Assembly (NCBI GenBank): GCA_945865545.1 | Contig: CAMBEQ010000007.1 | Coordinates: 196 to 64,195, forward strand | Direction: 5' to 3' | Source of the DNA: Sediminibacterium ginsengisoli | GTDB taxonomy: Bacteria; Bacteroidota; Bacteroidia; Chitinophagales; Chitinophagaceae | Length of the DNA: 64,000 nt | In this document: piece by piece, positions 13,574 through 33,711 of the stretch | How positions within the stretch are numbered: position 1 is the first letter of the stretch | Layout of the letters: each line of letters starts with the position of its first letter | Program-made: the position numbers and the translations under genes | Notes under the pieces: generated by a model | What the model was told of the DNA's origin: nothing | Database searches by the model: none | The model's input: only the letters and a program-made list of their open reading frames with translations

Positions 13574-14803
13574 TTATACGATCTCTATCTCTGGTAATGG
13601 GAAAATAAATTTACCTCCTTTTTCCATAAAAGTTTGTTCTTTTTCTAAAATTGAATGCTTAAAATGCCAAGGTAAAACTAGAAAATAATCGGGGTTCATT
13701 TCTTTTGCTTCTTTTTCTGAAATAATAGGTATATGTGTCCCAGGCGTAAAGCTGCCAAATTTTTCTGCATTCACTTCTGCAATAAAAGGGATTTGTTTTG
13801 GCGTAAAATTACAGAATTGTAATAAAACATTTCCTTTTGTTGAAGCACCGTATCCAAATACTTTTTTTCCATCAGCAACTAACGCTTCAATTAAATCTAC
13901 TAAATTTTTTCTATGTTTGAAAACACGTTCTTCAAAATCACGATATGGTTTTGGAGTGTCTAAACCCATATCTTCTTCTTGTTGAATCATCCAATTTATT
14001 ATAGGGTTATTTGACATATAACTAGCATTTGTTTTACAAGCAGTAACCGCAAAACTACCACCATTTATTGCATTCATTTGAACATCAATAACTTTCATAC
14101 CACAACTTTCCAATAAATTTTTAACAACTTTAAATGAGTAGAACTCTAAATGTTCATGACAGATAGTATCATATGAATTGGTGCGAAGCATTGAAGGCAT
14201 ATAACTTTGTTCAAAATGCCAGATACCATCTTCTGTTAAACATTGTTCTATGTCTTTTACAAAAGTGGCAGGATTTTCAAGATCATAGAACATTGCAATT
14301 GAGGTGATAATTTTAGCTTTTTCATTAGGAAAACTATTTTTAAAAGAAGTTGCAGAAAAAAATGTTGGGATCAACGATATATCATCTGTGTAAAATTCCT
14401 TAAATTTAAGACCTGTAGGGTCAATCCCAACTTTACGATGCTTCCCAGTATATGCTTTTAGGGATGTTGCATCATTACTGCCAATATCAATGACTAAATC
14501 ATTCACATTAAGTTTTAACAAGCGTTCCAAAGTATTTATCTTATTAGTCAAATGTTTAACCATAGATCCATTTAAGCCAGATCTATAACCATAATTATCG
14601 CCATACATTTCATCTAAACTATAGGATTGTTTCATCTGCAACAAACCGCTATCAGGGCACCAAACTAAATCCAATGGCCCTTTTGTAACTTCTTCATTTA
14701 CTGTTTTAGGGAATACACCAGTAAGATATTGTTCACCCAATGAAAGTACTGTTATTAAATTTTTACTACTGCTTATTCTGCATTTTGAAATTTCTGAATA
14801 CAT
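13574..14803 (-). CDS. NDP-sugar C-methyltransferase (TylC3/NovU-type, SAM-dependent)
   Basis: CRIS...SLGEQYLTGVFP, IDIGSNDAT, YDTICHEHLEFYS, GYGASTKGNVLLQ, LVLPWHF. Start moved to ATG 14803 because the track start 14842 overlaps the upstream gene. Confidence 0.88.
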   Translation of the reverse strand: MYSEISKCRISSSKNLITVLSLGEQYLTGVFPKTVNEEVTKGPLDLVWCPDSGLLQMKQSYSLDEMYGDNYGYRSGLNGSMVKHLTNKINTLERLLKLNVNDLVIDIGSNDATSLKAYTGKHRKVGIDPTGLKFKEFYTDDISLIPTFFSATSFKNSFPNEKAKIITSIAMFYDLENPATFVKDIEQCLTEDGIWHFEQSYMPSMLRTNSYDTICHEHLEFYSFKVVKNLLESCGMKVIDVQMNAINGGSFAVTACKTNASYMSNNPIINWMIQQEEDMGLDTPKPYRDFEERVFKHRKNLVDLIEALVADGKKVFGYGASTKGNVLLQFCNFTPKQIPFIAEVNAEKFGSFTPGTHIPIISEKEAKEMNPDYFLVLPWHFKHSILEKEQTFMEKGGKFIFPLPEIEIV

Positions 14804-14810
14804 ATTTATT

Positions 14811-15257
14811 TTATTTAATTTTTTTATTGTGTAAAAGTTCAATTAAGTTATTATCGATCTCATCTATACATTTAGTTCTTTCTAGATTGAGAATTGCTAG
14901 TTGCTTAACAACTATATCTTTTTGCAAAATTGGCACATTTTCAAAGTCATAAACTTTTTCTTGTTCGTGCCAAAGGCTGCAATTTACTTCTGCAAGTGTA
15001 CAGAAAATATTTCCGATACTCCCTCTAATTATTTTTATTTCATTTCCTTCTTGTTTAAAAACTTTATTAGACTTGAAAGTTAATTTCTTCAAAGGTATGA
15101 GGCCAGATAATGCATCTGAAATAAATTCTTCTATTTCATCAGTAAGTTGATTACATTGTTGTTCAAGACTCAAGAGTCTAATTTTGTCTTCTGTATGATA
15201 TTGCTTAAGTTTTACTATAGTTAGCTTATCGCAAAGTGTACCTAATGTTTCAGCCAT
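14811..15257 (-). CDS. Hypothetical helical protein (DUF4254-like, internally duplicated motif)
   Basis: ETLGTLCDKLTIVKLKQYH and SIGNIFCTLAEVNCSLWHEQE...LNLERTKCIDEID. Family assignment is from recall. Confidence 0.5.
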   Translation of the reverse strand: MAETLGTLCDKLTIVKLKQYHTEDKIRLLSLEQQCNQLTDEIEEFISDALSGLIPLKKLTFKSNKVFKQEGNEIKIIRGSIGNIFCTLAEVNCSLWHEQEKVYDFENVPILQKDIVVKQLAILNLERTKCIDEIDNNLIELLHNKKIK

Positions 15258-17149: not shown

Positions 17150-18925
17150 TTACATGTGAACCTTATTAAATAACCATCTAATCCATTTAAATATAATAGG
17201 TTTAATAGTATTTATGATTTTTTTCTTGAGTAGTAAAGAAGTGACAAAACTAGTGCTGAATGAGATCCCTTCTAATAGATTTAATTTTTGTCCATTACTT
17301 ATAATTGAATTGGCAAGAAACATACCGCTTCTTTTATCTGAACAGGAAATAAAGGTTAACTGTGAGAAATGTTCTTTTGCTTTATTTATTATAGACTTAT
17401 AAGAATCCGCTGAGCAACAATTAAAAATTAATGCCCCTCCGTTTGTTAAGTATGGCAAAAGGCACAGTAGATGTTTCTCAAACTCTTCTCCAATAGTTTC
17501 TTCTTTTATGAAGGCTAAATCAAAGGTAAAAATACCTATAAAAGTATCAGTGATACGATTGATAGCAGTTTGAATATCGCCATTGATTATACGTAAATAT
17601 CCACGATAGGGTGAGATTGTATAAATATATGAAATATCAAATGGATTGTTCTGTTTCGCAACCCCTTCCAATATATCTGCCTTGAATATTTCAACACTTG
17701 GGCACGTTGCAGCCACAACGCCAGTAGCAGGCGTAAGGCATGTAAAAAATTCTAAATATCTTCGGGGATAATTAAAATAACTATACCACGCAAGTAAACA
17801 TAATGCATTTAAATCTCCTTTATTTAATTCTTGTCCCTTCAAATAATATATCGATTTCTTTACATTTTGTAAAATATCAACATTTTTTATCTGTCTTTGA
17901 AAATCTTCTAGATTAAGGCTTTTCGTTATATAATAATCGTTATTTTCACTTACAGCCTCGCTATTTATTCCATTTTCTATATTAAAATTTTTCGGCACTG
18001 CTTGCTGTATATTCAAATCAATATCACCCAAACCCCAATTCTCATCATTGACATAAATTTTAGTATTATAAATTATTGGAGTTGGCTTGACATTTTTTTG
18101 TTTAAAAAGGCGACGCCCCCTAACAGGAGGATGCCCCATATGGTACAAAAATACACCTATACTTGATAAAGAGAGATGAGGATAATATTGAGTAACTCGG
18201 AAACCCAACTCTACATCGTTTGAAGAATATTCATAATTTGGTTCATCAAAGCCTCTAAATTTATTCCATAATGAGTAGTGCATTAAAAATCCACCAGCGT
18301 CTCCGAAAAAAGAAAATATTCCGGAATTTTCTAAAGATGTATTTTTACTGCATATTGAGAAATAACGATCCCATTCGACAAGATCAGGTTGTCTTTCCAT
18401 AAACTGCCATGGCACATCATACCTAGGAATTAAAAAATATGATCGTTCTAAATCGATAGATATAGGAAGTTCCCCATTGAGAAATCTAATTAATGTCTCA
18501 AAAGAATACTGTGAAATAAGTGTATCCCCAGGATATGTTAAAATGTACTTTCCACTAGCTCGCCTAGCCGCAACATTAGGTGGAATTGACAAATGCCAGT
18601 CATCTTTTCCGCTCTTCGTAACACCGCATATAATTTCAGATTCTACATATATAAAACGAGTGATTTTAGAAGCTTCCTGTGAAAGATCCAGCGTTTGACA
18701 AATCGGTATATCACTGCCCCAATCAGTGATGAGTATCTCTATATCATCCAACAAGTTTAAATTTTTGATACTACGTGCAAGATGATTAATTGTTGTATTA
18801 ATTCTATATTTGAAATCTACAAAATAATTATCATCCCTACCTGGTATACAAATAGATAATATTTTTGTTGGTGTAATTAAATTGTCTAATTTAAATTTTT
18901 TATCATTTTGTTTATTATCGCTCAT
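17150..18925 (-). CDS. Two-domain protein: GT-A (GT2/GT7-like) N-terminus plus degenerate Rossmann/methyltransferase-like C-terminus
   Basis: ILITDWGSD, NVAARRASGKYIL, GDAGGF..FRGFDE, DVELGFR, HMGH. The C-terminal domain call is weak. Confidence 0.5.
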   Translation of the reverse strand: MSDNKQNDKKFKLDNLITPTKILSICIPGRDDNYFVDFKYRINTTINHLARSIKNLNLLDDIEILITDWGSDIPICQTLDLSQEASKITRFIYVESEIICGVTKSGKDDWHLSIPPNVAARRASGKYILTYPGDTLISQYSFETLIRFLNGELPISIDLERSYFLIPRYDVPWQFMERQPDLVEWDRYFSICSKNTSLENSGIFSFFGDAGGFLMHYSLWNKFRGFDEPNYEYSSNDVELGFRVTQYYPHLSLSSIGVFLYHMGHPPVRGRRLFKQKNVKPTPIIYNTKIYVNDENWGLGDIDLNIQQAVPKNFNIENGINSEAVSENNDYYITKSLNLEDFQRQIKNVDILQNVKKSIYYLKGQELNKGDLNALCLLAWYSYFNYPRRYLEFFTCLTPATGVVAATCPSVEIFKADILEGVAKQNNPFDISYIYTISPYRGYLRIINGDIQTAINRITDTFIGIFTFDLAFIKEETIGEEFEKHLLCLLPYLTNGGALIFNCCSADSYKSIINKAKEHFSQLTFISCSDKRSGMFLANSIISNGQKLNLLEGISFSTSFVTSLLLKKKIINTIKPIIFKWIRWLFNKVHM

Positions 18926-19005: not shown

Positions 19006-19449
19006 TTATTTGAAAAATAACGAAAGAGGATTATTCACAGATTTATGTAAATTAACATCGGGTTTATCTACCCATTTGTAATTATTATGAAGCTTGTCAA
19101 TTTTCAACAAACAGATATCTATTGTTGACATTAAACAACAAATATTTACAGTGTGGATGTCAGTTAACATATTTTCATTTTTTTTAAAAACTGTTTCTTC
19201 TATAGTTAGTATTTTTATAAAATCACAGACAAGATTCGTTTCTTCTTTTGCTTTTCTAATCGAAGCGTTTTCAATTGATTCCAATTTATTTACTCTTCCC
19301 CCAGGAAACCAATATTGACCTTTTACAGGCTCATTGTCTCTTTTTAATAATAAACACTTTTTTTCAGATATTATCAGTAAATCAACACACAAAATTGGAA
19401 TTTTTTGCAGGATCAGATTATACTCAATTTCAGGAATAAACATGATCAA
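19006..19449 (-). CDS. NUDIX hydrolase (GDP-mannose mannosyl hydrolase Gmm/WcaH-like)
   Basis: PILCVDLLI, LLLKRDNEPVKGQYWFPGGRVNKLESIE..KAKEETNL, HTVNI. Confidence 0.85.
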   Translation of the reverse strand: MIMFIPEIEYNLILQKIPILCVDLLIISEKKCLLLKRDNEPVKGQYWFPGGRVNKLESIENASIRKAKEETNLVCDFIKILTIEETVFKKNENMLTDIHTVNICCLMSTIDICLLKIDKLHNNYKWVDKPDVNLHKSVNNPLSLFFK

Positions 19450-20594
19450 AAAGTTGTTTTAATTATCTCAGACAATAATTCTAGTCTCTCATCATTTACA
19501 AATTGATTATTGCCAATGTAAAAACCATTTTCATGCACAATTTGAGCAGTTTTAAAATCTTTAAAATCTCCAAATTGCATAAAACAAGGTTGAAGAAGAA
19601 GGTTACCGCTAACAATTGGTCTACTCTCTATATCATCTTTCAAAGCCTTATGTAATTTTTCTTTGTCTACTTTATTTTTAAAAATAAATGGAAGACAAAA
19701 AGAAGAAATGCCATCGCTGTCAACTTTATACAGTTTTTCCTTTATAGGATTAATTATTTCTAAATATCTTTTGTGATTTCGATTTCGAATTTGAATATAC
19801 CTCTCTAAATGCTTAAGTTGTTCTATTCCCAATACAGCATGTAACTCAGTATTTCTAAAATTATACCCATGGGTAAGAAATAAAAAATTGAAATCTAAAT
19901 GAGGGTATTTGTCCTTGTATTTTTGATGTTTTGAAGAATCAAGTTCTCTAGCAAGTCCATGAGATCTTTTAAGAATAAAAAGATCATTTAAATCCTCATT
20001 TTCAGTACAAATCATACCACCCTCAACAGTTGTGAGATGGTGTCCCCAATAAAAACTAAAAGTACTGGCAATTCCAAAATTTCCTACTTTTTTATTTTTA
20101 AAAGTTGCTCCATGTGATTCACAACAGTCTTCTAAAATAAGTAAAGAATATTTTTCGGCTATTTTTTTTATTACATCAATGTTAGCTGGTAATCCTATCA
20201 AATGAGTAATTAAAATGATTTTCGTTTTTGATGTTATTGACTTTTCTAGCATTTCATAATCAAATGAATAATCTACTAAATTAATATCCACAAAAACTGG
20301 AGTTAATTTGGCCTGAATTACAGATGTTATATTTGTTGTCCAAGTAACGGCAGGGACTAACACTTCCGCACCATCCTCTAAATTATAAAACTCTTTTACT
20401 GCATCTAGCATAATAAGATCAGCTGAACTCCCAGAATTTACAAAAGTTGAAAAATTACAATTCTGCCATTCTGACCAATCTTTTTCAAAAGCTTTTACCT
20501 TTGAAAATTGAGTAAATCTATCTGTAGTCTTTATGAATTCGACTAAGTGTTGTTTGTCTTTTCCCTCTAAAATATTTTCTTGAAGTTTCCACAT
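19446..20594 (-). CDS. PLP/PMP-dependent NDP-4-keto-6-deoxysugar 3-dehydratase (ColD/E1-like)
   Basis: DegT fold (VNSGSSADL, EDCCESHGA) with FSFYWGHHLTTVEGG, i.e. His in place of the catalytic Lys. Confidence 0.8.
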   Translation of the reverse strand: MWKLQENILEGKDKQHLVEFIKTTDRFTQFSKVKAFEKDWSEWQNCNFSTFVNSGSSADLIMLDAVKEFYNLEDGAEVLVPAVTWTTNITSVIQAKLTPVFVDINLVDYSFDYEMLEKSITSKTKIILITHLIGLPANIDVIKKIAEKYSLLILEDCCESHGATFKNKKVGNFGIASTFSFYWGHHLTTVEGGMICTENEDLNDLFILKRSHGLARELDSSKHQKYKDKYPHLDFNFLFLTHGYNFRNTELHAVLGIEQLKHLERYIQIRNRNHKRYLEIINPIKEKLYKVDSDGISSFCLPFIFKNKVDKEKLHKALKDDIESRPIVSGNLLLQPCFMQFGDFKDFKTAQIVHENGFYIGNNQFVNDERLELLSEIIKTTF

Positions 20595-20602: not shown

Positions 20603-21553
20603 TTATTTTTTTTTAGATAATTGAAAAGTTTTATCAAAATCATCGTATGCTTTGGATAAGTCATTTAATAAATCACTTTTTGATTTCCACCCGAGCAATT
20701 CGGCTCTACTCGAATCTAATAATTTCCTGGGGGTTCCGTTAGGTTTTGATAGATCATATTTTATTTCTCCATCAAATCCCGAAATATCCTTGATAAAAGA
20801 TGCAATTTCCGAAATAGTATAGTCTACCCCACTACCTATGTTTATGATATCATTACCAGAATAAGTATTCATAAAATAAAGGCTGGCATCCGCCAATTCA
20901 TCTGAACATAATATTTCTCGTTTTGGTGATCCAGTACCCCAAATTTCTACAATTTTATTCCCTTGCAATTTAGCCTCATAAAATTTACGAATTAGCGCAG
21001 CTACTAAATGCGAATTCTGAGAGTCATAATTATCATTGATGCCAAATAAATTTGTCGGCATTAGACAAATGTAATCAGTATTAAATTGCTTGTTAAATGA
21101 CTGGCATAGTTCTATGCCAGCAATTTTTGCAATTGCGTATGGCCTATTTGATTCTTCCAAAAAACCAGATAGTAAATACTCTTCTTTAATGGGCTGCTCT
21201 GAGTGCTTAGGATAAATACAACTACTCCCTAAATAAAGGAGTTTTTTAACTCCTGTTTGTAAAGAAGCCTGAAGAGTATTGAGAATAATGGAAATATTAT
21301 TTGATATAAAATCAGCTGGATAAGTCTTATTAGCCATTATTCCACCCACGGTTCCAGCAGCAAAAAAAACATATTCTGGCTGTTCTTTTATAAAAAAACT
21401 TAGCACCTTTTCATTAATTCTAAGATCTAACTCATTTGAAGATGGTATAAGTAAATTATAATACCCTTCATTAGAAAGTTTTCTCACTATTGCTGAACCA
21501 GCTAATCCATTACTTCCTGCTACAAATATTTTCGCATTTTTTTCCATTTTCAT
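20603..21553 (-). CDS. GDP-L-fucose synthase / ColC-type epimerase-reductase
   Basis: AGSNGLAGSA, LDLR, VGGIMAN, LGSSCIYPK, PYAIAKIAG, MPTNLFG, WGTGSPKRE. Confidence 0.9.
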   Translation of the reverse strand: MKMEKNAKIFVAGSNGLAGSAIVRKLSNEGYYNLLIPSSNELDLRINEKVLSFFIKEQPEYVFFAAGTVGGIMANKTYPADFISNNISIILNTLQASLQTGVKKLLYLGSSCIYPKHSEQPIKEEYLLSGFLEESNRPYAIAKIAGIELCQSFNKQFNTDYICLMPTNLFGINDNYDSQNSHLVAALIRKFYEAKLQGNKIVEIWGTGSPKREILCSDELADASLYFMNTYSGNDIINIGSGVDYTISEIASFIKDISGFDGEIKYDLSKPNGTPRKLLDSSRAELLGWKSKSDLLNDLSKAYDDFDKTFQLSKKK

Positions 21554-21578: not shown

Positions 21579-22616
21579 TTATGCTAATAAGTTATAATAT
21601 TTCATAATATTATTTAATCCAGCTTTATTATCAATAAAACTGTTTTTGCCAAATTCTCTTACATACCTATCAATATCCATGCGAACAACTATGGGTGAAT
21701 TTTTTGAAATTAACTCATCCTTGATTTCTTTTACAGAAACTTTTGCATCTAAAAGCTTTGCAATCAATTGTGCTAATTCCAAAATTGTTATTGAATCTAT
21801 ATTAGATGCTACATTATAGACTAATTCTTTACCTTTTAAAGATATATTCAATATCATTTCTACCGAATCAGAAATATAACAAAATGTCCTTACAGCTAAA
21901 CCGTTATCTAATAAATTAATTTCCTTTTGTTCATTTGCTTTACGGATAAATTGCTGGATTACTCTTTCATCATAATAGGTTGTACCTGGTCCATAGGTTA
22001 GGGAAATCCTACATATTTTAATTTTTAGTCTATTAGATTCGCTGAGACAGAGAGCTTCACCTAGTCGTTTAGATATAATATAACAAGCTCTGTTACTTGA
22101 AATACTATAATTGCCATTATATGATTCTTTTGTTGGTATATTCTCAATATTAGGATCTCCATAAATTTCTGATGACGACATATAAGTAAAAGTTGCATCA
22201 TTTTTCATACCAGAAAGAATGGAATAAAGACCTAACGTGTTTATCAAAGAAGTTTTAATAGGTTCCTTAATAAATTTAGCAGGTTGAGCATACCCCGAAC
22301 AATAATAAACATAATCTACATCATTAATTTTAACCATATCCTTATCAATTGGAGTAGAAGCATCCCAGCTAAAATAATTAACTCGTTTTATTAAACTCTT
22401 ATCAAATATACTTTCAGATAACGAAGATGAAAAAGATGTACAAATTATATTTATATTATAAATATTGCTAAGCTTATAAAAAAAATTTAGGAGATATCCG
22501 CCAATTAAACCATTACAACCTGTAATTAATATTGTCTTATTATTAAATAAAGACCAATCAAATTTATCTAGTAATGACAATATCTCACTATTAATTATAT
22601 CCTTGTTAGTTTCCAT
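21579..22616 (-). CDS. UDP-glucuronate decarboxylase (UXS)-like SDR
   Basis: TGCNGLIG, AQPAKFIKEPIKTSLIN, SSSEIYGDP, RACYIISKRLGEALC, TYGPG, RTFCYISD. Confidence 0.72.
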   Translation of the reverse strand: METNKDIINSEILSLLDKFDWSLFNNKTILITGCNGLIGGYLLNFFYKLSNIYNINIICTSFSSSLSESIFDKSLIKRVNYFSWDASTPIDKDMVKINDVDYVYYCSGYAQPAKFIKEPIKTSLINTLGLYSILSGMKNDATFTYMSSSEIYGDPNIENIPTKESYNGNYSISSNRACYIISKRLGEALCLSESNRLKIKICRISLTYGPGTTYYDERVIQQFIRKANEQKEINLLDNGLAVRTFCYISDSVEMILNISLKGKELVYNVASNIDSITILELAQLIAKLLDAKVSVKEIKDELISKNSPIVVRMDIDRYVREFGKNSFIDNKAGLNNIMKYYNLLA

Positions 22617-23478
22617 AAATTGTTTTTTTTAATAAATGTGGAGTTAAGCCAAGAAATTCGCGTTGTTCATCATAAGTCCCATAATGATCTAAAAATGCAT
22701 TGGGTATTCCAATTTTATTCAATTTGTTTTTTGTTAAATCGAAAATTGCATCGCCTAGCCCTCCTACTACATTATTCTCCTCAACCACAAAAATTTCTTT
22801 TCCTTTCATGTCATTAATCAAGTGTTCTATTGAATTTACTTCAAGATTAGTTATTGAATTTGTGTAATATATCGTAGAGTCTTGCTCAATATCTATTATA
22901 TCTTTAAGCATATGACCTGTAGTAATAATTAATTTATTGTCATTCCCTTTTTTAACTATTTTCATTTCATGTGGAAGAATATCTAATGTCTGATTGTGCT
23001 CTCGACTAGTAAGCTTGATATATTTTGCTCTGCCGTTTCCTATTGTTTTTTTTATTATATCGTCAAACTCAAAAGAGGAACCTGGGATATAAATATCAAG
23101 ATTCGGAACAACCCTAAGTATAGAAATATCATTTGTACAATGATGAGAGCAACCCATATGGGCGTAATCAAATGAAGCTCCAACTGAAATTATAATAACT
23201 TCCACATTCTGATATCCTATATCTAATTTTATTTGTTCGTATACCCTCTCAGTACAAAATGGCGCTATAGTATGTACAATAGGCAACTTCCCTTCTAAGC
23301 TTAAGCCACTTGCGAGGCCAATAAGTGTTTGTTCAGCAATACCTAAATTATAAAATCTATTCTTAAATTTATCTTCAATATTAGTCAATAAATAATGACT
23401 AATATCTCCAATTAAGACCACTACCTGACTATTAAAAGTCATTATTTCGTCTAATGTTTTAGCTAATTGCTTCCTCAT
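22606..23478 (-). CDS. Transketolase-like, C-terminal (pyrimidine-binding) subunit
   Basis: GDIS, NLGIAEQTLIG.ASGL, RVYEQIK, GCSHHCTNDI, VVEEN..GGLG. Confidence 0.88.
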   Translation of the reverse strand: MRKQLAKTLDEIMTFNSQVVVLIGDISHYLLTNIEDKFKNRFYNLGIAEQTLIGLASGLSLEGKLPIVHTIAPFCTERVYEQIKLDIGYQNVEVIIISVGASFDYAHMGCSHHCTNDISILRVVPNLDIYIPGSSFEFDDIIKKTIGNGRAKYIKLTSREHNQTLDILPHEMKIVKKGNDNKLIITTGHMLKDIIDIEQDSTIYYTNSITNLEVNSIEHLINDMKGKEIFVVEENNVVGGLGDAIFDLTKNKLNKIGIPNAFLDHYGTYDEQREFLGLTPHLLKKTIYGN

Positions 23479-24226
23479 GAATTTCTTTTATATATAATTT
23501 TAACAAATTGTCAGTGATCCCCTTATGATGCCATTCTTGAAAATTTGATTCCATGTCTGCAATTCCTTTCCCTTTTTTAGTATTCATAATTACACACAAT
23601 GGGTTAATTGTGTTTAAATTAAATACACTTAGGATTTCATTACTATTATGGCCATCGATTGTTATAACATCCCAACCGAAAGAACTAAATTTTTTTTGCA
23701 AATTTGGAGTCGGTATTGATCTATTTTGGGATTGATTATTATCAACTATACATATTAAATTATTAAGTTTTAAATTGTCTGCAAGAATAGCAGATTCCCA
23801 AGTTGTGCCTTCATTTGCTTCTCCATCGCCTATTAAACAAAATATTTTTTTAGATGATTGATTAATTTTTGCAGCTAATGCCTTACCTACTGCAATTGGT
23901 AACCCATGACCTAGTGAACCTGTTGATGCTTTAATTTCATTATTTTTTCGTAGATGTGGATGACCCCCAAGTATAGAATCAAAGTCTCCAAAACTAAAAA
24001 AAACTTCTGTTGTAATATAATTAAAATGCTCTAATACACTATAAAGTGCAAGACATCCGTGGCCTTTGCTTAAAATAAAATCATTATTAATATTTAATTT
24101 ATTTTCATAAAATAAATATACAAAATTAATAATCGAAAAGGCACTAGGTATATGGCCTTTATTTTTCTTGTTTGCAAGAAGAAGTATATTTTTTTTAGAT
24201 TCCCTTATATTTTTTGAAATTTCCAT
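23459..24226 (-). CDS. Transketolase-like, N-terminal ThDP-binding subunit
   Basis: GHIPSAFS, ILSKGH, GGHP, STGSLGHGLP, GDGEANEG...DNN ThDP motif, DGH, KGKG, WHHK. Confidence 0.9.
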   Translation of the reverse strand: MEISKNIRESKKNILLLANKKNKGHIPSAFSIINFVYLFYENKLNINNDFILSKGHGCLALYSVLEHFNYITTEVFFSFGDFDSILGGHPHLRKNNEIKASTGSLGHGLPIAVGKALAAKINQSSKKIFCLIGDGEANEGTTWESAILADNLKLNNLICIVDNNQSQNRSIPTPNLQKKFSSFGWDVITIDGHNSNEILSVFNLNTINPLCVIMNTKKGKGIADMESNFQEWHHKGITDNLLKLYIKEIHEEAIS

Positions 24227-24250: not shown

Positions 24251-25552
24251 TTATAATAACGAATTATATTGTAGATTCCATTCGGCACCTCCCATAACAC
24301 AACACCAACTTTTAGCACTACTACCATAAATTGCCATCTTTGAACCAGTTTCAATTATGTTAAATCGGAAAATATTCTCGCGTGTATCGATGTTTAATTT
24401 GTTGGGGTAATGGGCAGAAATTCTAACAGTGTACATGTCTGGAACTAGAAAATTCCCTTTTAAACTTATTGAAGCACAATATGAACCCGGCTTAAGTTCA
24501 ATGAAAGTTTTATCATTGTCATCAGATAAGCTACTAAATAATACATTAACTCCACTTGTATTTGACAAAACTATAGTTATCTCTGTATCTTTTGTATAGC
24601 TCAATACATTAAATTCAAGTCCAAGAATAAATTCATTTTGTACATCAATATCAGAATTAGGATTACCTTCTTTATCATTAATCCAAATTTTAGTAAACGT
24701 AACGTTGGCTTCTAATTTAGGGTCTAGAATAACAATGCCATCTGTTTCAACTTGTTTATTTGTAATGTATTTATTGATAATATCTGAAGTATTTCCAATT
24801 GCAGCAATTGTTCCCTGATTAAGTAAAATTGCTTTGGAGCACAATGATTTTATTGCAGAAATATTATGACTTACGAAAAGAACGGTTCTACCTTCTTTAT
24901 TACTAATATCACTCATCTTACCTAAACATTTTTTTTGAAATTCAGCATCCCCAACTGCCAGTACTTCATCAACAATAAGAATTTCGGATTCCAAATAAGC
25001 AGCAACAGCAAATGCTAATCTCACATACATTCCACTACTATATCGTTTTACAGGTGTATCTAGGAATTTTTCTACTCCACTAAAATCAACTATATCGTCA
25101 AACTTTGTTTTTATTTCAGTACGACTCATTCCTAAAATGGCCCCATTAAGAAAAATATTTTCCCGGCCCGACAACTCAGGATGAAACCCCGTACCAACTT
25201 CTAAAAGGCTTGCTAACCTTCCATTAATTTCAATACGTCCATAGGTTTGTTCTGTAATCCTTGACAAAATTTTCAATAGTGTACTTTTCCCTGCACCATT
25301 TCGCCCAATAATACCTAGTGTTTCTCCTTTTTTAACCTCAAAATTAATATCTTTTAATGCCCAAAATTCCTCTATCTCTTCCCCGCTGATGCTACTTGAT
25401 GCATCATTCCGGAACATCCTTTGAATCCCTTTTCCAAATCCTTTCACATTATTGGCAATCACATCACGCATAGCTGTGTAAGAAACTTGATTCTCGTGAC
25501 CAATAAAATATCTTTTTCCTAGCCCTTCAACTTTAATGATTGTATCTGACAT
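24251..25552 (-). CDS. wzt: ABC transporter ATP-binding protein with C-terminal carbohydrate-binding (Wzt_C) extension
   Basis: Walker A GRNGAGKST, YSSGMYVRLAF, IVDEVLAVGD, VSH, plus about 170 extra C-terminal residues. Confidence 0.95.
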   Translation of the reverse strand: MSDTIIKVEGLGKRYFIGHENQVSYTAMRDVIANNVKGFGKGIQRMFRNDASSSISGEEIEEFWALKDINFEVKKGETLGIIGRNGAGKSTLLKILSRITEQTYGRIEINGRLASLLEVGTGFHPELSGRENIFLNGAILGMSRTEIKTKFDDIVDFSGVEKFLDTPVKRYSSGMYVRLAFAVAAYLESEILIVDEVLAVGDAEFQKKCLGKMSDISNKEGRTVLFVSHNISAIKSLCSKAILLNQGTIAAIGNTSDIINKYITNKQVETDGIVILDPKLEANVTFTKIWINDKEGNPNSDIDVQNEFILGLEFNVLSYTKDTEITIVLSNTSGVNVLFSSLSDDNDKTFIELKPGSYCASISLKGNFLVPDMYTVRISAHYPNKLNIDTRENIFRFNIIETGSKMAIYGSSAKSWCCVMGGAEWNLQYNSLL

Positions 25553-25555
25553 ATA

Positions 25556-26389
25556 TTATATTAAATCTGCAAAAGTTTTTTCCATTTTTCTAAACTTGTA
25601 GATAGCGTATACAAGTATTAATATCGTAATACCTAATGATAAAGCAAAATATCCAGTAAAAGGATTTGCAGCACCATCTCCAATAATACACCACCTAAAA
25701 CCGTCAATAACACTTACCATTGGGTTTAGATAATACAACAATTTCCATTGCTGGGGTATAACAGAACTGCTGAACCCAACCGGAGATATGTACAACCCAA
25801 TTTGTACAATAAATGGAACAACATAACGAAAATCACGAAATTTAACGTTGAGGGCTGCTAAGTAAAGTCCAAACCCAAAAGATTGCAGAAATGCTAAGAA
25901 CATAAAGAATGGCAAGCAAACCATTTGGAAATTTGGAAGATACCTATAATATGCCATGAGTAAGATTAAAATGACAAAGGATAATAAAAAATCCACAAAA
26001 CTGGTGATGATGGCACTTGTTGGCACAATTAATCTTGGAAAATAAACCTTTCCTAGCAAATTTGCATTTGAAATCAAACTTTCACTGGCACTGGAAAAAG
26101 CAGAAGAAAAAAATAGCCAGGGCAATAAACCGGCAAATACCATAATTGCATAAGGCGCAGAACCCACTGATTTCATGCCGGCTACTTTACCAAAAACAAT
26201 TGTAAAAACAATCATGGTTAAAAATGGTCTCAAAAATGCCCAAATGATCCCAATTACAGTTTGCTTATACCTTACTCTTACATCTCGCCAGCTAAGAATA
26301 TAAAACAACTCCCTGTACCTCCAAAGATCAGCCCAATAATTCTTTTCGGAACGGCCTGGCTCTAAAATTAAGTGATATTTATTCTCCAT
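25556..26389 (-). CDS. wzm: ABC-2 polysaccharide permease
   Basis: RDVRVRYKQT.IG..W, KVYFPR, FRDFRYVVPF, YISPVG, LNPM; six TM segments. Confidence 0.95.
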   Translation of the reverse strand: MENKYHLILEPGRSEKNYWADLWRYRELFYILSWRDVRVRYKQTVIGIIWAFLRPFLTMIVFTIVFGKVAGMKSVGSAPYAIMVFAGLLPWLFFSSAFSSASESLISNANLLGKVYFPRLIVPTSAIITSFVDFLLSFVILILLMAYYRYLPNFQMVCLPFFMFLAFLQSFGFGLYLAALNVKFRDFRYVVPFIVQIGLYISPVGFSSSVIPQQWKLLYYLNPMVSVIDGFRWCIIGDGAANPFTGYFALSLGITILILVYAIYKFRKMEKTFADLI

Positions 26390-26895: not shown

Positions 26896-28251
26896 TTAGA
26901 TTATTTTAAAATCCATTTTTTGCGAGTTTGACAATACTAAATAATTTAAACTGAAAGTAACAGATGGATAAAAAATATTTGGAATTCTTTCAAATAAACA
27001 GAGAGCTCCGATAGTACCATTCCAAACTTTTTTTCTAATTAAACACAAGTAAAACGATCGAAAGTCAATTTTAATAGTTAACAATCCTTTGCACTCGGAT
27101 TGGTTACTTCTTAATGTAAATTCACAAATCGGATTATCAAGTACTTCATTCAACTCTTCATTTAATGTCAAATCCTTATATAAAATAAATTTTATATCCT
27201 GTTCTATTTCTATATTTTTTTGGGTAATTACATCAATCCAATTACATTTGGCTATTTCAAAAAGCTCAGATATTTTCTCAATTGAAACTTCACAGACTTC
27301 CATTTCATAATCATATAAATCGTCTTTGTGATTATCAATACTTTTTATAATTTCACTGCAAAGAGGTAAAAATTCAGTGGATAATTGTATAGGATTTTTA
27401 AGGCCTAAATTAATCTTAACACTATTGCCACCTTCTAAATGCAATAAATTACAGTCTATATTGTTATTTTTTAATGAATCTCGTATTTCATTGATCGAAG
27501 GCTGAGCAATCAGTGAATTTAAAGGATGAAGTTTCCCTGGAATGATATATGTGCCTCCTGCAGGAAAATAATACTCAGGTTTTAAAATATTTAATTTTTC
27601 AACAAGTTTTCGCAAACTACTTTTAATTATAAACTCCTTTTCTTGAATTCTTTCAATATTTAAAAACATATGAGGATATTCACTAGCAGCTCCTGCCATC
27701 AAAGCGGCAATTGTTATTTTACCATAGTTAGTATCAATCCAATTACTAAGTTTTATATAATCATTTGTAGAATAAGGATTATCAACTTGATTAAAAAATA
27801 CATGAGTCCCGTCTGAAATAATAAATGAAGTATCAAGATCATATTCAACATCTTCATCAAGATCATCGGAATTGGATGACATTTGAGGGAGTATTGACAT
27901 TATAACTTTTCCTAATGTAAATTTTTCATAAGGTTGAAGTTCGTATATCTCTCTTACACCAATTAATTTTAATTTATTTATAAGTACTTTAAAATGAAAA
28001 TTTTTAATGATAAATTTTTTTTCTACTAGTTTACTTTCAATTAAAAAGTTTAAATCTAGATGGTCATCGTGCAAATGCGATATATATACTATATCCACAT
28101 TTTCTAGGTGTGTTATTAACTGACTTTTATCATATTCTGGGAATGAATGCCAACCACCATAATTTGCTATCCCAACCCATGGGTCACAACAAATTTTCAT
28201 GTTATTGACTTCAATAGTTATAAATGAATTTGATAAATGTGTAATTTTCAT
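26896..28251 (-). CDS. Metallo-beta-lactamase-fold protein resembling the catalytic domain of CMP-N-acetylneuraminate hydroxylase (CMAH), lacking the Rieske domain
   Basis: ITHLSNS, DPWV...GGW, DIVYISHLHDDHL, LDTSFII, FFNQVD, AGAASEYP, LKPEYYFPAGG. Confidence 0.7.
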   Translation of the reverse strand: MKITHLSNSFITIEVNNMKICCDPWVGIANYGGWHSFPEYDKSQLITHLENVDIVYISHLHDDHLDLNFLIESKLVEKKFIIKNFHFKVLINKLKLIGVREIYELQPYEKFTLGKVIMSILPQMSSNSDDLDEDVEYDLDTSFIISDGTHVFFNQVDNPYSTNDYIKLSNWIDTNYGKITIAALMAGAASEYPHMFLNIERIQEKEFIIKSSLRKLVEKLNILKPEYYFPAGGTYIIPGKLHPLNSLIAQPSINEIRDSLKNNNIDCNLLHLEGGNSVKINLGLKNPIQLSTEFLPLCSEIIKSIDNHKDDLYDYEMEVCEVSIEKISELFEIAKCNWIDVITQKNIEIEQDIKFILYKDLTLNEELNEVLDNPICEFTLRSNQSECKGLLTIKIDFRSFYLCLIRKKVWNGTIGALCLFERIPNIFYPSVTFSLNYLVLSNSQKMDFKII

Positions 28252-28257
28252 AAATAA

Positions 28258-28920
28258 TTATTTTGTAGCTATAGCAATTATAGATGTACTTCTCCCTTTT
28301 AAAAATCCAGGTATATATTTAGCATCCCCCCTAAAAGGTAACAAATAGTTTGCTTTAAAAAATCGATATTCCCCTAAATAAAACCATTTAGCTTTACATC
28401 TTAAACCTGGATAGGTTTTTGGATTACTAAATCCGTACATTAATAATATACGTTCTAAAGTCAATGGATTATATGGCTTTACATGTGTAGGGTCATTATA
28501 AAATGCTCTATAATCATAAAACCAATTTGGGGTAGTAATATAAATTATACCGCCAGGTTTCAATACTCGAAATATTTCACTTAGAAAATTATCTGGATTT
28601 GAAATGTGTTCAATAACGGCCAAAGAAACTATGAATTCAATAGAATCATTCTCATAAGGAAATCTATCGAATTCAAAATTAATATCTGTTATATCTAATC
28701 CTAGATATTCCATTTGTCTTGTTACAACAGGTTTTTTTAGATGTTGATCCCCACAACCTAAATCTAAGAAACGTATGTTTCCTTTGTTATTAGGAATTGT
28801 ATTTTGATAAATTTCTAAAATATTAAATAGTGTTTGTATTTCTCTTTCACCTTTTTCTTGTCTATTGATAATCTTACTTGATTTTTCACGTTCCTGTTCA
28901 AAATATTTTAGTCCTAGCAT
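28258..28920 (-). CDS. Class I SAM-dependent methyltransferase
   Basis: FLDLGCG, FPYENDSIEFIVSLAVIEH, RVLKPGGIIYITTPN. Confidence 0.9.
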   Translation of the reverse strand: MLGLKYFEQEREKSSKIINRQEKGEREIQTLFNILEIYQNTIPNNKGNIRFLDLGCGDQHLKKPVVTRQMEYLGLDITDINFEFDRFPYENDSIEFIVSLAVIEHISNPDNFLSEIFRVLKPGGIIYITTPNWFYDYRAFYNDPTHVKPYNPLTLERILLMYGFSNPKTYPGLRCKAKWFYLGEYRFFKANYLLPFRGDAKYIPGFLKGRSTSIIAIATK

Positions 28921-29007
28921 AATTTTAAATTTGTATTTTAATAATTATTTAAACAATTTATTGATAAATTTAAAAAAATAATTATTACGTTAGTTTAAAT
29001 AAAATAT

Positions 29008-30024
29008 TTAGAAAATTATTTTTAAAATAGTTCCTCCCCAAGAATAACCAACTCCGAAACCAGCTAATAAAATATGATTTCCTTTAAATAATTTATTCTC
29101 TATTTTTGCATGGTAAAGTGCTATAGGAATTGTTGATGATACAGTATTTCCACAATCTTCAATGTGCATATAAAATTTATCATTTTCTATTGCTGACTTT
29201 TTCTTGAGGCTATCAAGCATGAATTTATTTGCTTGATGAAAAATATATAAATCGATATCACCTTTATTAAGCATATTCTTATTTAAAGTTTCTAAAATCA
29301 AATTTGGAACAGATGCTAAAGTAAATAAAAATATCTCCTGCCCATTCATATATAAGAAGTCATCAGGATTATATTCATCAGTATTTGAAACAGGGCCGTG
29401 AGCAAATGTACTAAAATTTCTTAATCCGCGATTTCTAACAATTAGATTTTCAGCTCCTTTACCATCTGTGCCATATTGAAAGTCCATGATTTCAGCAAAT
29501 CCAGTTTCTGAAGAAATTAATGTTGCAGCTGCTGCATCACCGAAGATAGTCCTATTTCCTTTATCACTTGGGTGAATAAATTTAGAATAAGTCTCAGAGG
29601 TTATTAATAAAACGTTTTTAGCTTGTTGCGAATGGATTAATCCTTTTGCCAAACCTAGTCCATATATATAACCTGAACATCCCAGATTAATATCTATTGC
29701 ACCAGTTGTTGTAGAAAGTCCTAATTTGTCCTGAATTATACATGCTGTAGTAGGTAAAAAATAATCAGGACTTTGAGTGCATAAAATGATATAGTCTATT
29801 AAATTTTTTTCAATATTATGTTCAGCAAAAAGTTTTTTTGCAACTTCTATTGCCATATCACCTGAAGTCTGATTTATATCTGAAATAAACCTATTTCGAA
29901 TACCTGTTTTTTCAATGATTTTTTGGCTTGGCCATTCTGGAAATTCTATATTAATTTTATCATTATCTAAAACATTTGTTGGTAAATAATATGATATAGC
30001 TCTTATAAATGATTTCATTTTCAC
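29008..30024 (-). CDS. 3-oxoacyl-ACP synthase III (FabH-like), copy 1
   Basis: Catalytic triad LGCSG / FHQAN / GNTVSSTIP; FGDAAAA; GFGVGYSWG. Confidence 0.92.
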   Translation of the reverse strand: MKMKSFIRAISYYLPTNVLDNDKINIEFPEWPSQKIIEKTGIRNRFISDINQTSGDMAIEVAKKLFAEHNIEKNLIDYIILCTQSPDYFLPTTACIIQDKLGLSTTTGAIDINLGCSGYIYGLGLAKGLIHSQQAKNVLLITSETYSKFIHPSDKGNRTIFGDAAAATLISSETGFAEIMDFQYGTDGKGAENLIVRNRGLRNFSTFAHGPVSNTDEYNPDDFLYMNGQEIFLFTLASVPNLILETLNKNMLNKGDIDLYIFHQANKFMLDSLKKKSAIENDKFYMHIEDCGNTVSSTIPIALYHAKIENKLFKGNHILLAGFGVGYSWGGTILKIIF

Positions 30025-30034
30025 AATGGATTAA

Positions 30035-30781
30035 TTAAAAAGTACTAGATCTACCTCCATCAATATTTAAAACTGCGCCTGTAATCCATCTACTTTTAGA
30101 GGAAAGCAAAAAAACCGACAAATTAGCAACGTCTTCTGGGATCCCATATCCAAGAGGGTATTTTTTTTTATCAATTAAAATCGCCTCTAAAGATACTTTA
30201 GATTCAATTTCTACAGTCAATTTAGTTTCAACTTGACCAGGAGCAATAGAATTAACCCTTATTCGTTGAGATGCTAATTCTGATGCTAAAACTTTAGTTG
30301 TTGAATTCAAAGCTGCTTTTGTAGATGAATAAATTGAATTTCCTTTCATTCCCATTTCACTTGCAATAGAACTAATAAAAATTATTGACGCGTCTTTATT
30401 TATTTTTTTAATTTTCAATAACTTTGAAATTATTACCAAAATTGAATCGTAATTAACTTTTCGGATTTTATTTAGAACTTCGATATTAAAGAATTTTATA
30501 GGAAGTAATTGAACAATTCCAGCACAGTGAACAATGCCATCAAGTTGATGATCTATTTTCGAAATTAATTTATCTAACCCATCTATGTTTATTAAATCAT
30601 AATTTATTCCAACAAAACTCGGTAATTGATTTGATAAAGCATTTAACTTTTCAGTATTTCTACCTACCCCAATTACTATACCTCCATATTTTGAAATTTG
30701 AAGACATGTTTCAAGCCCTATACCTGAAGTAGCGCCAGTAACCAAAAATACTTTTCCGTTTAAATTTATAAAATTTTCCAC
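30035..30781 (-). CDS. Classical SDR oxidoreductase (FabG-like 3-oxoacyl-ACP reductase)
   Basis: VTGATSGIG, HCAG, SSIAS, YSSTK, RVNSIAPG, WITG..LNIDGG. Confidence 0.88.
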   Translation of the reverse strand: MENFINLNGKVFLVTGATSGIGLETCLQISKYGGIVIGVGRNTEKLNALSNQLPSFVGINYDLINIDGLDKLISKIDHQLDGIVHCAGIVQLLPIKFFNIEVLNKIRKVNYDSILVIISKLLKIKKINKDASIIFISSIASEMGMKGNSIYSSTKAALNSTTKVLASELASQRIRVNSIAPGQVETKLTVEIESKVSLEAILIDKKKYPLGYGIPEDVANLSVFLLSSKSRWITGAVLNIDGGRSSTF

Positions 30782-31867
30782 TTATATTAATTCTAAATAT
30801 TTTTCATGAAAACTATTGATTCTACTCTCTTCTTTACCCAAAAAATATGTATTTTCAACAAATGGCATATTTTTTTGAATTTGTTCAAGAATAACTTTAT
30901 CTTCTTCAAGAATTTGATTGATAGAAGTTTTAACCATTTCTAGAAATGCTTTATGAATAGCCTCCTTAGGAATAAAATTATCTCGAAATTTAGGGCTATA
31001 AAAACGCTTTCTTAATATTGATTTTTCTGAATTTACTGGCAAAATATTGCCTACATAAATACTTGTTCCTTCTGTTGATGAAATCAATAAGTTAGGAAAA
31101 ATAAAATAGTGTCTAAAAGTATCATGTTTAATTTCGATATTGTCAAGGTATTTTAATAATTTATTGCCTTCATCTACTTTATCCGATTTTGGATAATCTG
31201 CAACCGAATGTCCATTATAATAATCGTTATTTACTTCTGATTTTCTACAAAACCCCATATTATATAATGTGTTTTGATGAATTGCTGGACAGTGATATGC
31301 TTCAACAACATTTTCAACAATTAATTTCCAATTAATGTTTTGCAAATCATCCTCGAAATAAAAATTATAGTCTATTGCTAAACTTACTTCTAATAGCTTA
31401 TCATGAAAAACTCCCAAATATTCTTTTATCGACTCTGAATTTTGATCAAGGGAAACGAATACAAATTTTCCTACTATTTCTATCCGCAAAGGCTTAACCT
31501 TTAAACAATTGAAATCTTGATGACTCTCATTAAAAGAAGATTTCTTTGGAATTGACTTAACATTACCCTCTTTATCAAAACTCCAATTATGGTATCCACA
31601 TATAAAAAAATCTATTCCTTTAGTTTTAGTTTGAATCCTGTTAAATCTGTGCGGGCATATGTTTTGAAATGCCCTTAATTCACCATTAAAGTTTTGTATA
31701 ACAATTGGGTAATCTAAGATGTCCAGTGTAATAAATGAATTATTTTCTAAGAAATCACTTAACATTCCTGCAAATAACCAATTTTTTGAAAATACTTTAT
31801 CGAACTCTAATTGCTGAGTACTATTTCCAAAATAAAATTTTGGATGAATTAATTTATTGTTATCCAT
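30782..31867 (-). CDS. Rieske non-heme iron oxygenase, alpha-subunit type
   Basis: Rieske ligands NICPHR / FICGYHNW; mononuclear Fe site ENVVEAYHCPAIH ... EEDK; NWKL; IFPNL. Confidence 0.92.
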   Translation of the reverse strand: MDNNKLIHPKFYFGNSTQQLEFDKVFSKNWLFAGMLSDFLENNSFITLDILDYPIVIQNFNGELRAFQNICPHRFNRIQTKTKGIDFFICGYHNWSFDKEGNVKSIPKKSSFNESHQDFNCLKVKPLRIEIVGKFVFVSLDQNSESIKEYLGVFHDKLLEVSLAIDYNFYFEDDLQNINWKLIVENVVEAYHCPAIHQNTLYNMGFCRKSEVNNDYYNGHSVADYPKSDKVDEGNKLLKYLDNIEIKHDTFRHYFIFPNLLISSTEGTSIYVGNILPVNSEKSILRKRFYSPKFRDNFIPKEAIHKAFLEMVKTSINQILEEDKVILEQIQKNMPFVENTYFLGKEESRINSFHEKYLELI

Positions 31868-32936
31868 GGTAATAACTCATATTCGTTTTTAAAGATTTGT
31901 TTAAATTCAATAAAACACTACCCCAAGAAAGTCCTACGCCAAATCCACAGAGCAACACAGACAAATTATTTTTTTGAATTAAATTATTAAATGACTGAAC
32001 AATTGTTAAGGGTATAGATGCACCATTTGTATTTCCGAAGTTTTGAATAGAATTAGGCATTTTGTCTTTGTCAACTTTTAATTTTTTTCTTATTGTCTCA
32101 TTCATAAATAAATTAGCTTGATGGAGAAAAAAATAATCGATATCATCTGTCCTTTTTGACACATATTTAAGAATATTGAAAATTGAATTCGGAGCTTTCT
32201 TTATGGCAAAATTAAACACATCTATGCCTTCTAATTGCAAATCAACACTACTTCTTTTGCCTTGTGATGGGTCATTTATATTAATATCTTTTAAATCAAA
32301 TGAATTTTTATTAGTTCTAAACCTTGATCCTCCAGCCTTAATTTTTATTGCATCACTACCTGTGCCATCACTACCTATATCGAATGTCCAATTACAATTG
32401 GATTGAATATCAAATTCAATTGCTGTTGCTGTCCCAGCATCGCCAAATAATGGATAAACGCTTTTATCATACTTAGAAGTATATGTGCTAATTGTATCCC
32501 CCACCAACAATAATGCTCTATTGAACTTAATGTTTTGAAGTAAGTTTGAAACCAAACTTAACCCATAAATGTATCCCGAGCAGCCTAACGATACATCTAG
32601 ACAAAAACAATCTTGACTTAGACCAAGTCTACTTTGCAATAAATTAGATGTTGCTGGTAAAATATAATCTGATGACTGAGACACAAAAATTAAAATATCA
32701 ATATCATCTTTATGCCAAGCAAGTTCAGTAAGAATTTTTTCAGCAGCCTGTAAACACAAGTCAGACGCACAAGAATCACCTTCTGAGATATGTCGCTGAG
32801 TTATGCCTGTATTTTGTATAAATTTTTCTGCATCTTCATTCGAAAAAAAATCTAAATCAACGGTGCGAATTTTTTTTTCAGGAACACATGCTGAAATACC
32901 CCTTATCTGAACATTTTGAACTTCTAGCAAAGCCAT
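31860..32936 (-). CDS. 3-oxoacyl-ACP synthase III (FabH-like), copy 2
   Basis: LGCSG / LHQAN / GNTNGASIP triad; FGDAGTA; GFGVGLSWG. Confidence 0.92.
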   Translation of the reverse strand: MALLEVQNVQIRGISACVPEKKIRTVDLDFFSNEDAEKFIQNTGITQRHISEGDSCASDLCLQAAEKILTELAWHKDDIDILIFVSQSSDYILPATSNLLQSRLGLSQDCFCLDVSLGCSGYIYGLSLVSNLLQNIKFNRALLLVGDTISTYTSKYDKSVYPLFGDAGTATAIEFDIQSNCNWTFDIGSDGTGSDAIKIKAGGSRFRTNKNSFDLKDININDPSQGKRSSVDLQLEGIDVFNFAIKKAPNSIFNILKYVSKRTDDIDYFFLHQANLFMNETIRKKLKVDKDKMPNSIQNFGNTNGASIPLTIVQSFNNLIQKNNLSVLLCGFGVGLSWGSVLLNLNKSLKTNMSYYHG

Positions 32937-32941
32937 ATTGA

Positions 32942-33693: not shown

Positions 33694-33711
33694 ATTTAAT
33701 TTTTTTTCAAT

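Follow-up and report, generated by a model that had tools for sequence, protein, structure and literature searches.

A split transketolase paralogue paired with a UXS-like reductase in GDP-sugar gene clusters may build C4-branched surface sugars

What is a second, split transketolase (TK) doing in a bacterial surface-glycan gene cluster? The question is raised by positions 21579-24226 of the 64,000-nucleotide stretch of Sediminibacterium ginsengisoli DNA analysed here (hereafter, the window), which belongs to a 2.26 Mb genome that is 92% complete. Both ends of this interval coincide exactly with ends of open reading frames, and between them lie three overlapping minus-strand genes: TK-N (23459-24226; 255 aa), the thiamine diphosphate (ThDP)-binding (PP) subunit of a split transketolase; TK-C (22606-23478; 290 aa), the pyrimidine-binding subunit; and SDR1 (21579-22616; 345 aa), an extended short-chain dehydrogenase/reductase (SDR; Pfam Epimerase, E=5.9e-31). 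Neighbouring genes of the triad share 20 nt (TK-N with TK-C) and 11 nt (TK-C with SDR1). With just 24-25 nt between the triad and either the Wzt gene upstream or the next gene downstream, these genes form one operon. The initial annotation had described an overlapping tkt-N/tkt-C pair followed by an SDR resembling UDP-xylose synthase (UXS), which the gene ends and the closest solved relative of SDR1, human UXS1, bear out. It had further proposed that a ThDP enzyme adds a two-carbon branch to a nucleoside diphosphate (NDP)-4-keto sugar, giving a yersiniose-like product. Branching of this kind is the best-supported reading of the locus, drawing on a remodelled TK paralogue, a fixed linkage to SDR1, Gmd and ColD, a retained pair of donor-binding histidines and the likeness of SDR1 to a ketol reductase. 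To its specific form, in which Gmd and ColD make GDP-4-keto-3,6-dideoxymannose, TK attaches a hydroxyacetyl group to C4 of this sugar and SDR1 then turns the branch into 1,2-dihydroxyethyl by reduction, we assign a probability of roughly one half.

The two subunits belong to the transketolase family. TK-N matches Pfam Transketolase_N (90.9 bits, E=9.9e-26) and TK-C matches Transket_pyr (72 bits, E=5.8e-20). In the PDB, TK-N comes closest to another split TK, that of C. hydrogenoformans (6yak, 137 bits), while TK-C scores 102 bits against 6yaj, with DXS structures ranking second. TK-N is better described by Transketolase_N than by E1_dh (PF00676; 41.5 bits), the model of E1-type alpha subunits. 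The pair does not show the single-chain architecture of POX/ALS-type enzymes: the best Pfam and PDB matches are TK and DXS, and TPP_enzyme_C reaches 24 bits over the ThDP motif. A separate canonical split TK is encoded elsewhere in the genome, with its N subunit on contig C12 and its C subunit on C10. The window pair is 27-30% identical to this housekeeping pair (29.5% between TK-N and the C12 subunit), and the Pfam score of the housekeeping N subunit is 173 bits versus 89 for TK-N of the window.

In a maximum-likelihood tree of 81 concatenated TK-N and TK-C pairs, a single branch parts the 77 pairs from glycan clusters from the four housekeeping pairs (SH-aLRT 99). Phyla are thoroughly mixed inside the glycan-cluster clade, and the subclade that the window TK shares with metagenomic and virus-like sequences is supported. 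Of 401 genomes sampled from the window's phylum, just 3 encode a close TK-C, which argues for horizontal spread; the two others both belong to a heptose-linked sister group. An alignment-based scan of species-representative genomes yielded 80 loci among the matches listed, the pattern matching at least 599 stretches, and a pattern scan of genomes built on a single TK protein found distant relatives only. Carriers among the 80 loci include Patescibacteria, Omnitrophota, Acidobacteriota, Verrucomicrobiota, Pelagibacteraceae, Paenibacillus and Bradyrhizobium. The TKs of the scanned loci fall into three groups: group A, which contains the window; its sister, group B; and group C, which is more distant and mixed. 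Judged from sequence, the best explanation is that the window TK is a specialised paralogue dedicated, together with SDR1, to nucleotide-sugar tailoring, and not a pentose-phosphate or housekeeping transketolase.

The residues around the active site point the same way. They are numbered here as in E. coli TktA and were placed by motif alignment against the genome's own canonical TK, with motifs that we take to mark these positions. The GDG..N ThDP motif is kept in TK-N. Across 38 TK-N homologues the equivalents of His26, His66 and His100 are invariant and that of His261 is at least 90% conserved, and none of 88 TK-C sequences departs from the equivalents of Glu411, His473 and Arg358. From the sugar-phosphate site of canonical TKs (Arg358, Ser385, His461 and Arg520) and Asp469, the ligand of the acceptor C2-OH, Arg358 alone is retained. 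The Ser385 equivalent is Phe or Tyr in most of the window's family and His in the window, that of His461 is Gly in the window's group, the Arg520 position is variable in group A, and the Asp469 equivalent is Leu in group A and Met in the window TK-C. All four housekeeping controls are canonical at positions 385, 461, 469 and 520; we take 385, 469 and 520 to be sites that protein engineers have mutated in E. coli TK.

The change of three of the four phosphate-binding positions and of Asp469 argues against sugar-phosphate substrates. It thereby counts against the idea that the locus simply carries an ordinary transketolase copy that raises sugar-phosphate flux, for example towards sedoheptulose-7-phosphate or fructose-6-phosphate for GDP-sugars. 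Group B lends this idea some colour, as its TKs lie in GDP-heptose clusters with GmhA, GmhB, an HddA-like kinase, a Gmd-like 4,6-dehydratase, RmlC and Fcl-like SDRs (the heptose genes having been checked in L045 only). The window cassette, however, is devoid of heptose genes, the housekeeping TK is present elsewhere in the genome, and precursor supply leaves the fixed pairing with SDR1 unaccounted for. We consider this explanation very improbable. Group B TKs (L045, L053, L054, L091, L025 and L026) retain Asp469, and their clade takes in the TKs of the cultured Bradyrhizobium guangxiense and Desulfocucumis palustris.

The donor half of the active site bears on what is transferred. In canonical TK the His100/His473 pair binds the C1-OH of the donor. 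DXS, by comparison, uses pyruvate, and the genome's own DXS has Phe at the His100 position. Retention of both histidines therefore favours a hydroxyacetyl over an acetyl unit. A DXS-like reaction would instead place an acetyl group from pyruvate at C4, which SDR1 would reduce to 1-hydroxyethyl, giving a GDP-linked analogue of yersiniose. TK-C does score nearly as high with the DXS model as with the TK model (83 vs 84 bits), in line with the second rank of DXS structures, and both YerE and AviB1/B2 use pyruvate (PMC9306805). Yet the His100 equivalent is invariant in the family, His473 is kept, and the closest characterised reductase to SDR1 works on a hydroxymethyl ketone (PMC10918830). An acetyl branch thus appears unlikely.

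The genes that accompany the pair suggest the acceptor. Directly downstream of SDR1 lie three minus-strand genes, FclL (20603-21553), a ColD-type gene (19446-20594) and a NUDIX hydrolase gene (19006-19449), with Wzm/Wzt genes just upstream and gmd 16 kb upstream (39848-40936, minus strand; Pfam GDP_Man_Dehyd, 499.7 bits), the last encoding GDP-mannose 4,6-dehydratase. The ColD-type protein is a DegT-family, pyridoxamine phosphate-dependent GDP-4-keto-6-deoxymannose 3-dehydratase. Its best PDB matches are ColD/WbdK (2gms and 3gr9), with 208 bits to 2gms against 114 bits for perosamine synthase, and in its motif FSFYWGHH the GHH aligns with SHH of ColD, in which His replaces the catalytic PLP-binding Lys. 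The '3-dehydratase module' named in the initial annotation is thus confirmed as a ColD-type gene beside FclL and the NUDIX gene. Of the two acceptors that had been offered initially, the 3,6-dideoxy-4-ketohexose is favoured and the 4-keto pentose is disfavoured.

The order Gmd-TK-N-TK-C-SDR1-Fcl-like-ColD-NUDIX is also found on two metagenome contigs (L009 and L010), at 58-63% TK-N identity and with the NUDIX gene likewise following ColD. Recurrence of this order in unrelated metagenomes, in many phyla and on IMG/VR contigs indicates that the arrangement is not a product of chance. TK-N, TK-C and SDR1 are present at all 18 curated group-A loci, nearly always adjacent and in that order, and a bona fide Gmd lies within 9 kb at 11 of the 18. 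The carriers of group A encountered in this analysis are uncultured genomes throughout. Gmd adjoins the triad in L009, L010, L027, L030 and most viral loci.

The viral loci give the widest sampling of partners. TK relatives are encoded on 169 IMG/VR contigs, and SDR1 adjoins TK in 62 of 70 non-redundant loci. The commonest set, found at 11 of these, is Gmd, ColD, TK and SDR1 with no other reductase or epimerase. Beside the viral TK cassettes, 34 of 35 DegT genes carry the ColD His motif. ColD and a methyltransferase of about 311 aa (MT311) are almost mutually exclusive partners of TK and SDR1, a single locus having both, a pattern that would fit a shared site of action, position 3 of the sugar. 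Since the Fcl-like gene, a small cupin and the NUDIX hydrolase are optional members of the cassette, the shortest pathway that recurs runs from Gmd, through ColD in some loci, to TK and SDR1. An obligatory Fcl is ruled out by the 11 non-redundant viral loci with only Gmd, ColD, TK and SDR1. Some of the IMG/VR contigs with TK genes (L194-L273, L012, L019, L020) carry PhoH, a PD-(D/E)XK nuclease and FUT8/NodZ-like transferases, and in the virus-like locus L020 a 290-aa open reading frame with no Pfam match (9770-10642) sits between TK-N and TK-C. A search of GenBank phages gave no close match, identities being at most 36%.

Is SDR1 a reductase or a decarboxylase? Its best solved relative by sequence is human UXS1 (97.6 bits), and Foldseek with its AlphaFold2 model (pLDDT 93.6) places human UXS1 (2b69) first, followed by the C. 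jejuni CDP-6-D-glucitol synthase HS5.17 (8v4g/8v4h). A profile of 61 SDR1 homologues scores 190 bits with UXS1 and 183 bits with HS5.17. The S/T-x-E, YxxxK and closing Arg of UXS- and ArnA-type enzymes are present in SDR1 as SSSE, YIISK and a conserved R243 equivalent. The residues Tyr167, Lys171, Glu140, Arg164, Arg208 and Arg233 of HS5.17 correspond in turn to conserved Y179, K183, E150, R176, R218 and R243 of SDR1. The model has a helix at residues 6-16, before the first Rossmann strand, and over this region (the first 25 residues) the SDR1 profile aligns, from residue 3, with HS5.17 (8v4g) only and not with UXS. The N-terminal helix of HS5.17 has been described as unique within the SDR superfamily (PMC10918830). 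That enzyme reduces, with NADPH, the HOCH2-C(=O)- ketol of open-chain CDP-6-D-fructose, and its UXS-like Glu and Arg bind the diphosphate and sugar hydroxyls without decarboxylation (PMC10918830).

These features bear on a reading that resembles eurekanate formation, in which SDR1 would be a true UXS/ArnA-type decarboxylase that converts an NDP-hexuronate into an NDP-4-keto-pentose for branching by TK, while Gmd, ColD and Fcl serve a separate colitose residue. The top rank of human UXS1 in both sequence and fold, the conserved S-S-E, YxxxK and Arg motifs, the JGI automatic annotation of SDR1 homologues as UDP-glucuronate decarboxylase and the analogy to AviE2 with AviB1/B2 all speak for it. 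Against it, the Asp that binds the NAD ribose at the end of beta-2 in UXS is replaced by Ser, Thr or His in 18 of 18 SDR1 orthologues, and the N-terminal helix of SDR1 is common to the HS5.17 reductase, not to UXS. UDP-glucose dehydrogenase (UDPG_MGDP_dh) is found near only 3 of the 18 group-A loci, compared with Gmd near most, and the genome has an ordinary Ugd-UXS pair of its own on contig C33. That SDR1 conserves the Glu and Arg was at first read as pointing to decarboxylation, a reading then dropped because the HS5.17 reductase keeps both (PMC10918830). A decarboxylating SDR1 is accordingly quite unlikely, and the missing Asp, the irregular occurrence of Ugd beside the cassette and the genuine Ugd-UXS pair elsewhere lead us to disfavour the AviE2-like decarboxylase and 4-keto-pentose that had been suggested at the outset.

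The same likeness to HS5.17 brings in another possibility, namely that TK and SDR1 make an open-chain or non-ring product, such as a nucleotide-linked alditol or ketose comparable to CDP-glucitol, or some other C2-extended polyol substituent. HS5.17, which comes within 7 bits of UXS1, acts on an open-chain nucleotide sugar (PMC10918830), and aldehyde acceptors are normal for transketolases. HS5.17, however, works with a fructose-6-phosphate cytidylyltransferase, and no nucleotidyltransferase lies in the TK cassette of the window, in L009, in L010 or, as a conserved member, in group A. The conserved partners Gmd and ColD moreover yield ring-locked GDP-ketosugars. Such a product seems decidedly improbable. 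We propose instead, from these sequence and model comparisons, that SDR1 is an NADPH-dependent reductase of a ketol made by TK, a ketol being the kind of product that transketolases form. In a GDP-4-C-hydroxyacetyl-hexose, five carbons would separate the branch carbonyl from the diphosphate-bearing oxygen, the same distance as for C2 of CDP-6-fructose.

The gene identities, clade membership, residue changes and synteny described above are established, and the route built on them can be set out as follows, with acceptor, donor, order of steps and product all inferred. Gmd would make GDP-4-keto-6-deoxy-D-mannose, from which ColD would remove the 3-OH to give GDP-4-keto-3,6-dideoxy-D-mannose. TK-N/TK-C would take hydroxypyruvate or a ketose as ketol donor, form dihydroxyethyl-ThDP and let this carbanion attack the C4 ketone; the resulting GDP-3,6-dideoxy-4-C-(hydroxyacetyl)hexose would bear a tertiary alcohol. 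SDR1 and NADPH would then reduce the branch carbonyl to a 1,2-dihydroxyethyl branch. FclL would be inessential to this Gmd-ColD-TK-SDR1 route. The end product would be a C8 sugar of 'hydroxy-yersiniose' type, transferred by a protein here called u591 or by a neighbouring glycosyltransferase into a polysaccharide exported by Wzm/Wzt. Two other uses of the ThDP enzyme were considered and rejected: cleavage between C3 and C4 or epimerisation of the keto sugar, as ColD variants have no 3-OH, and chain extension at C6, as the Gmd route has no aldehyde intermediate.

This route, with a hydroxyacetyl branch at C4, fits the residue and synteny data better than any of the four alternatives discussed above. 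Several points nevertheless weigh against it. We know of no transketolase that accepts a ketone on a nucleotide sugar. The function proposed for the clade is a prediction from sequence and gene content, which is the main weakness of the proposal. No gene that would form the donor lies in the TK cassette. In the minimal sets of Gmd, ColD, TK and SDR1, SDR1 could be a plain C4 reductase and TK could have some other role. Many cassettes have, after SDR1, an Fcl-like epimerase/reductase, which would draw on the 4-keto intermediate in competition with the branching route. SDR1 keeps the UXS-type Glu and Arg, although these are non-decisive because HS5.17 has them too, and its preference for NADP(H) is read solely from the missing Asp.

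ThDP-dependent branching of NDP-4-keto sugars is, to our knowledge, known only for ALS-type enzymes (the YerE family) and inferred for E1-type pairs. In the YerE/YerF (yersiniose A) and ErwE/ErwF (erwiniose) systems, which are characterised or proposed, an acyl anion equivalent is added to C4 of a 3,6-dideoxy-4-keto NDP-hexose and a NAD(P)H-dependent reductase then acts on the branch (PMC9306805). The route proposed for the window would resemble these systems in both respects, and shares with them an O-antigen cluster setting beside a 3-dehydratase. It differs in enzyme and substrate: YerE and ErwE are single-chain ALS-type enzymes that use 2-keto acids and CDP-sugars, whereas the window has a two-subunit TK fold, GDP-linked sugars and probably a hydroxyacetyl or dihydroxyethyl branch. 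The AviB1/AviB2 and AviE2 proteins of eurekanate formation (avilamycin and everninomicin) likewise combine a two-subunit ThDP enzyme with a UXS-like SDR. AviB1/B2, however, are of the E1 (pyruvate dehydrogenase) type, unlike TK-N of the window (Transketolase_N 91 vs E1_dh 41 bits), and AviE2 decarboxylates UDP-GlcA, while in SDR1 the NAD-binding Asp is missing and the linkage is to Gmd rather than Ugd.

Transfer of a hydroxyacetyl group to a keto sugar is the role proposed, though not proven, for split-gene TKs in miharamycin and amipurimycin biosynthesis, which are uncharacterised in vitro (PMC12247030). These TKs belong to Streptomyces secondary metabolism and act on a nucleoside core, while the window clade is found in surface-glycan clusters of many phyla and on virus-like contigs. 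In the full-text literature searched on transketolases or C-branched sugars in connection with O-antigen, GDP-sugar, colitose or nucleotide-sugar, no characterised example and no account of this clade came up, and the miharamycin/amipurimycin proposal was the only one found. SDR1 shares with HS5.17 (8V4G/8V4H) a UXS-like fold, a pre-Rossmann helix of about 20 residues, YxxxK, Glu and three Arg; the two are about 22-25% identical, and HS5.17 is accompanied by a cytidylyltransferase whereas SDR1 is accompanied by TK and Gmd. The remainder of the cassette is like the GDP-L-colitose pathway of E. coli O55, with Gmd, a ColD-type enzyme with His for Lys, an Fcl/ColC-like protein and a Gmm-like NUDIX hydrolase, but TK and SDR1 are inserted in the operon and many relatives keep them without ColC.

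A transketolase acting on a GDP-sugar would, if the proposed route is true, be a third independent enzymatic solution to this chemistry and would point to a family of surface sugars yet to be described. Relative to known ThDP-dependent C-branching, the route would use another enzyme fold, another nucleotide and probably another branch. It is conceivable, at somewhat less than even odds, that this is the first transketolase-family enzyme to act on a nucleotide-activated ketosugar, making GDP-3,6-dideoxy-4-C-(1,2-dihydroxyethyl)hexose, or its 3-O-methyl/6-deoxy analogue in the MT311 variants, as a new class of C8 branched sugars whose genes have spread horizontally among many bacterial phyla and are carried on virus-like contigs. 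The cassette is common, including in Patescibacteria, SAR11 relatives and freshwater Bacteroidota, and in natural waters its sugar could play a part in how phages recognise their hosts. Biocatalysis, too, looks for natural TKs able to turn ketones into chiral tertiary alcohols (PMC12247030).

FclL, the GDP-L-fucose synthase/ColC-like 3,5-epimerase-4-reductase of the cassette, reaches 409 bits with NCBIfam GDPFucSynFcl, whose equivalog threshold is 500, and matches PDB 8du0/1bsv with 290 bits. It keeps all its catalytic motifs: Ser-x-Cys (GSSCIYP), YxxxK (YAIAK) and NSH. A further fcl beside gmd (38987-39881, minus strand) is a decayed pseudogene, which tblastn recovers as two pieces in different frames; it has stops and a frameshift near 39620, and its NSH reads NSNG. 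FclL is thus the sole intact Fcl-type gene of the cluster. It probably serves either to make GDP-L-colitose in parallel from the ColD intermediate or to epimerise C5 before branching. The NUDIX hydrolase downstream is GDP-mannose mannosyl hydrolase-like (Pfam NUDIX, 40.9 bits; NCBIfam PRK15434, 42 bits). Beyond the high end of the window, at a distance of 8 kb (C7:71671-72624), lies a second Gmd paralogue, which is of the short type and has 38.6% identity.

A candidate for the transfer of the branched sugar is u591 (17150-18925, minus strand; 591 aa), a possible glycosyltransferase and O-methyltransferase. The protein has no Pfam or PDB match of its own, and its predicted functions come from weak signals in homologues, some members of its family of 42 proteins giving weak matches to PF10111, PF02709 and PF13578 (GT-A and O-methyltransferase). 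Homologues of u591 lie near TK modules of group B, and two of three homologues whose contexts were inspected are accompanied by a two-subunit ThDP enzyme, one of TK type and one of E1 type. Export would fall to the Wzt ATP-binding cassette (ABC) ATPase with its Wzt_C domain and the Wzm permease (24251-26389, minus strand; Pfam ABC_tran, Wzt_C and ABC2_membrane). Since Wzm/Wzt with Wzt_C adjoin the cassette of the window and those of three further group-A loci (L032, L035 and L038), one may speculate that the branched sugar forms a chain-end cap read by the carbohydrate-binding domain of Wzt.

The DXS of the genome shares 87-89% identity with freshwater Bacteroidota MAGs, of which one is labelled Sediminibacterium, and 76-77% with Chitinophagaceae. 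The content of the window is nearly all glycan biosynthesis, with Wzm/Wzt, a nonulosonic-acid set, many methyltransferases and glycosyltransferases, and export genes of Wza/Wzx type. The nonulosonic-acid set (26896-38932, minus strand) comprises a PseB/LegB-like dehydratase, an aminotransferase, NeuB, a CMP-transferase and a GNAT protein. After it come genes for two KAS-III enzymes, a Rieske ring-hydroxylating oxygenase, an SDR like FabG, a methyltransferase and a protein of metallo-beta-lactamase fold. The arrangement may serve an unusual N-acyl decoration of the nonulosonate. The window also encodes a TylC3-type NDP-hexose C-methyltransferase (13574-14842, minus strand; PF08421 and PF08484), and a 77% identical paralogue (C14:4495-5721) adjoins another 4,6-dehydratase, so the genome probably makes a C-methyl-branched sugar as well. 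C-methyltransferases are also found near the TK cassettes of three other loci (L033, L034 and L046).

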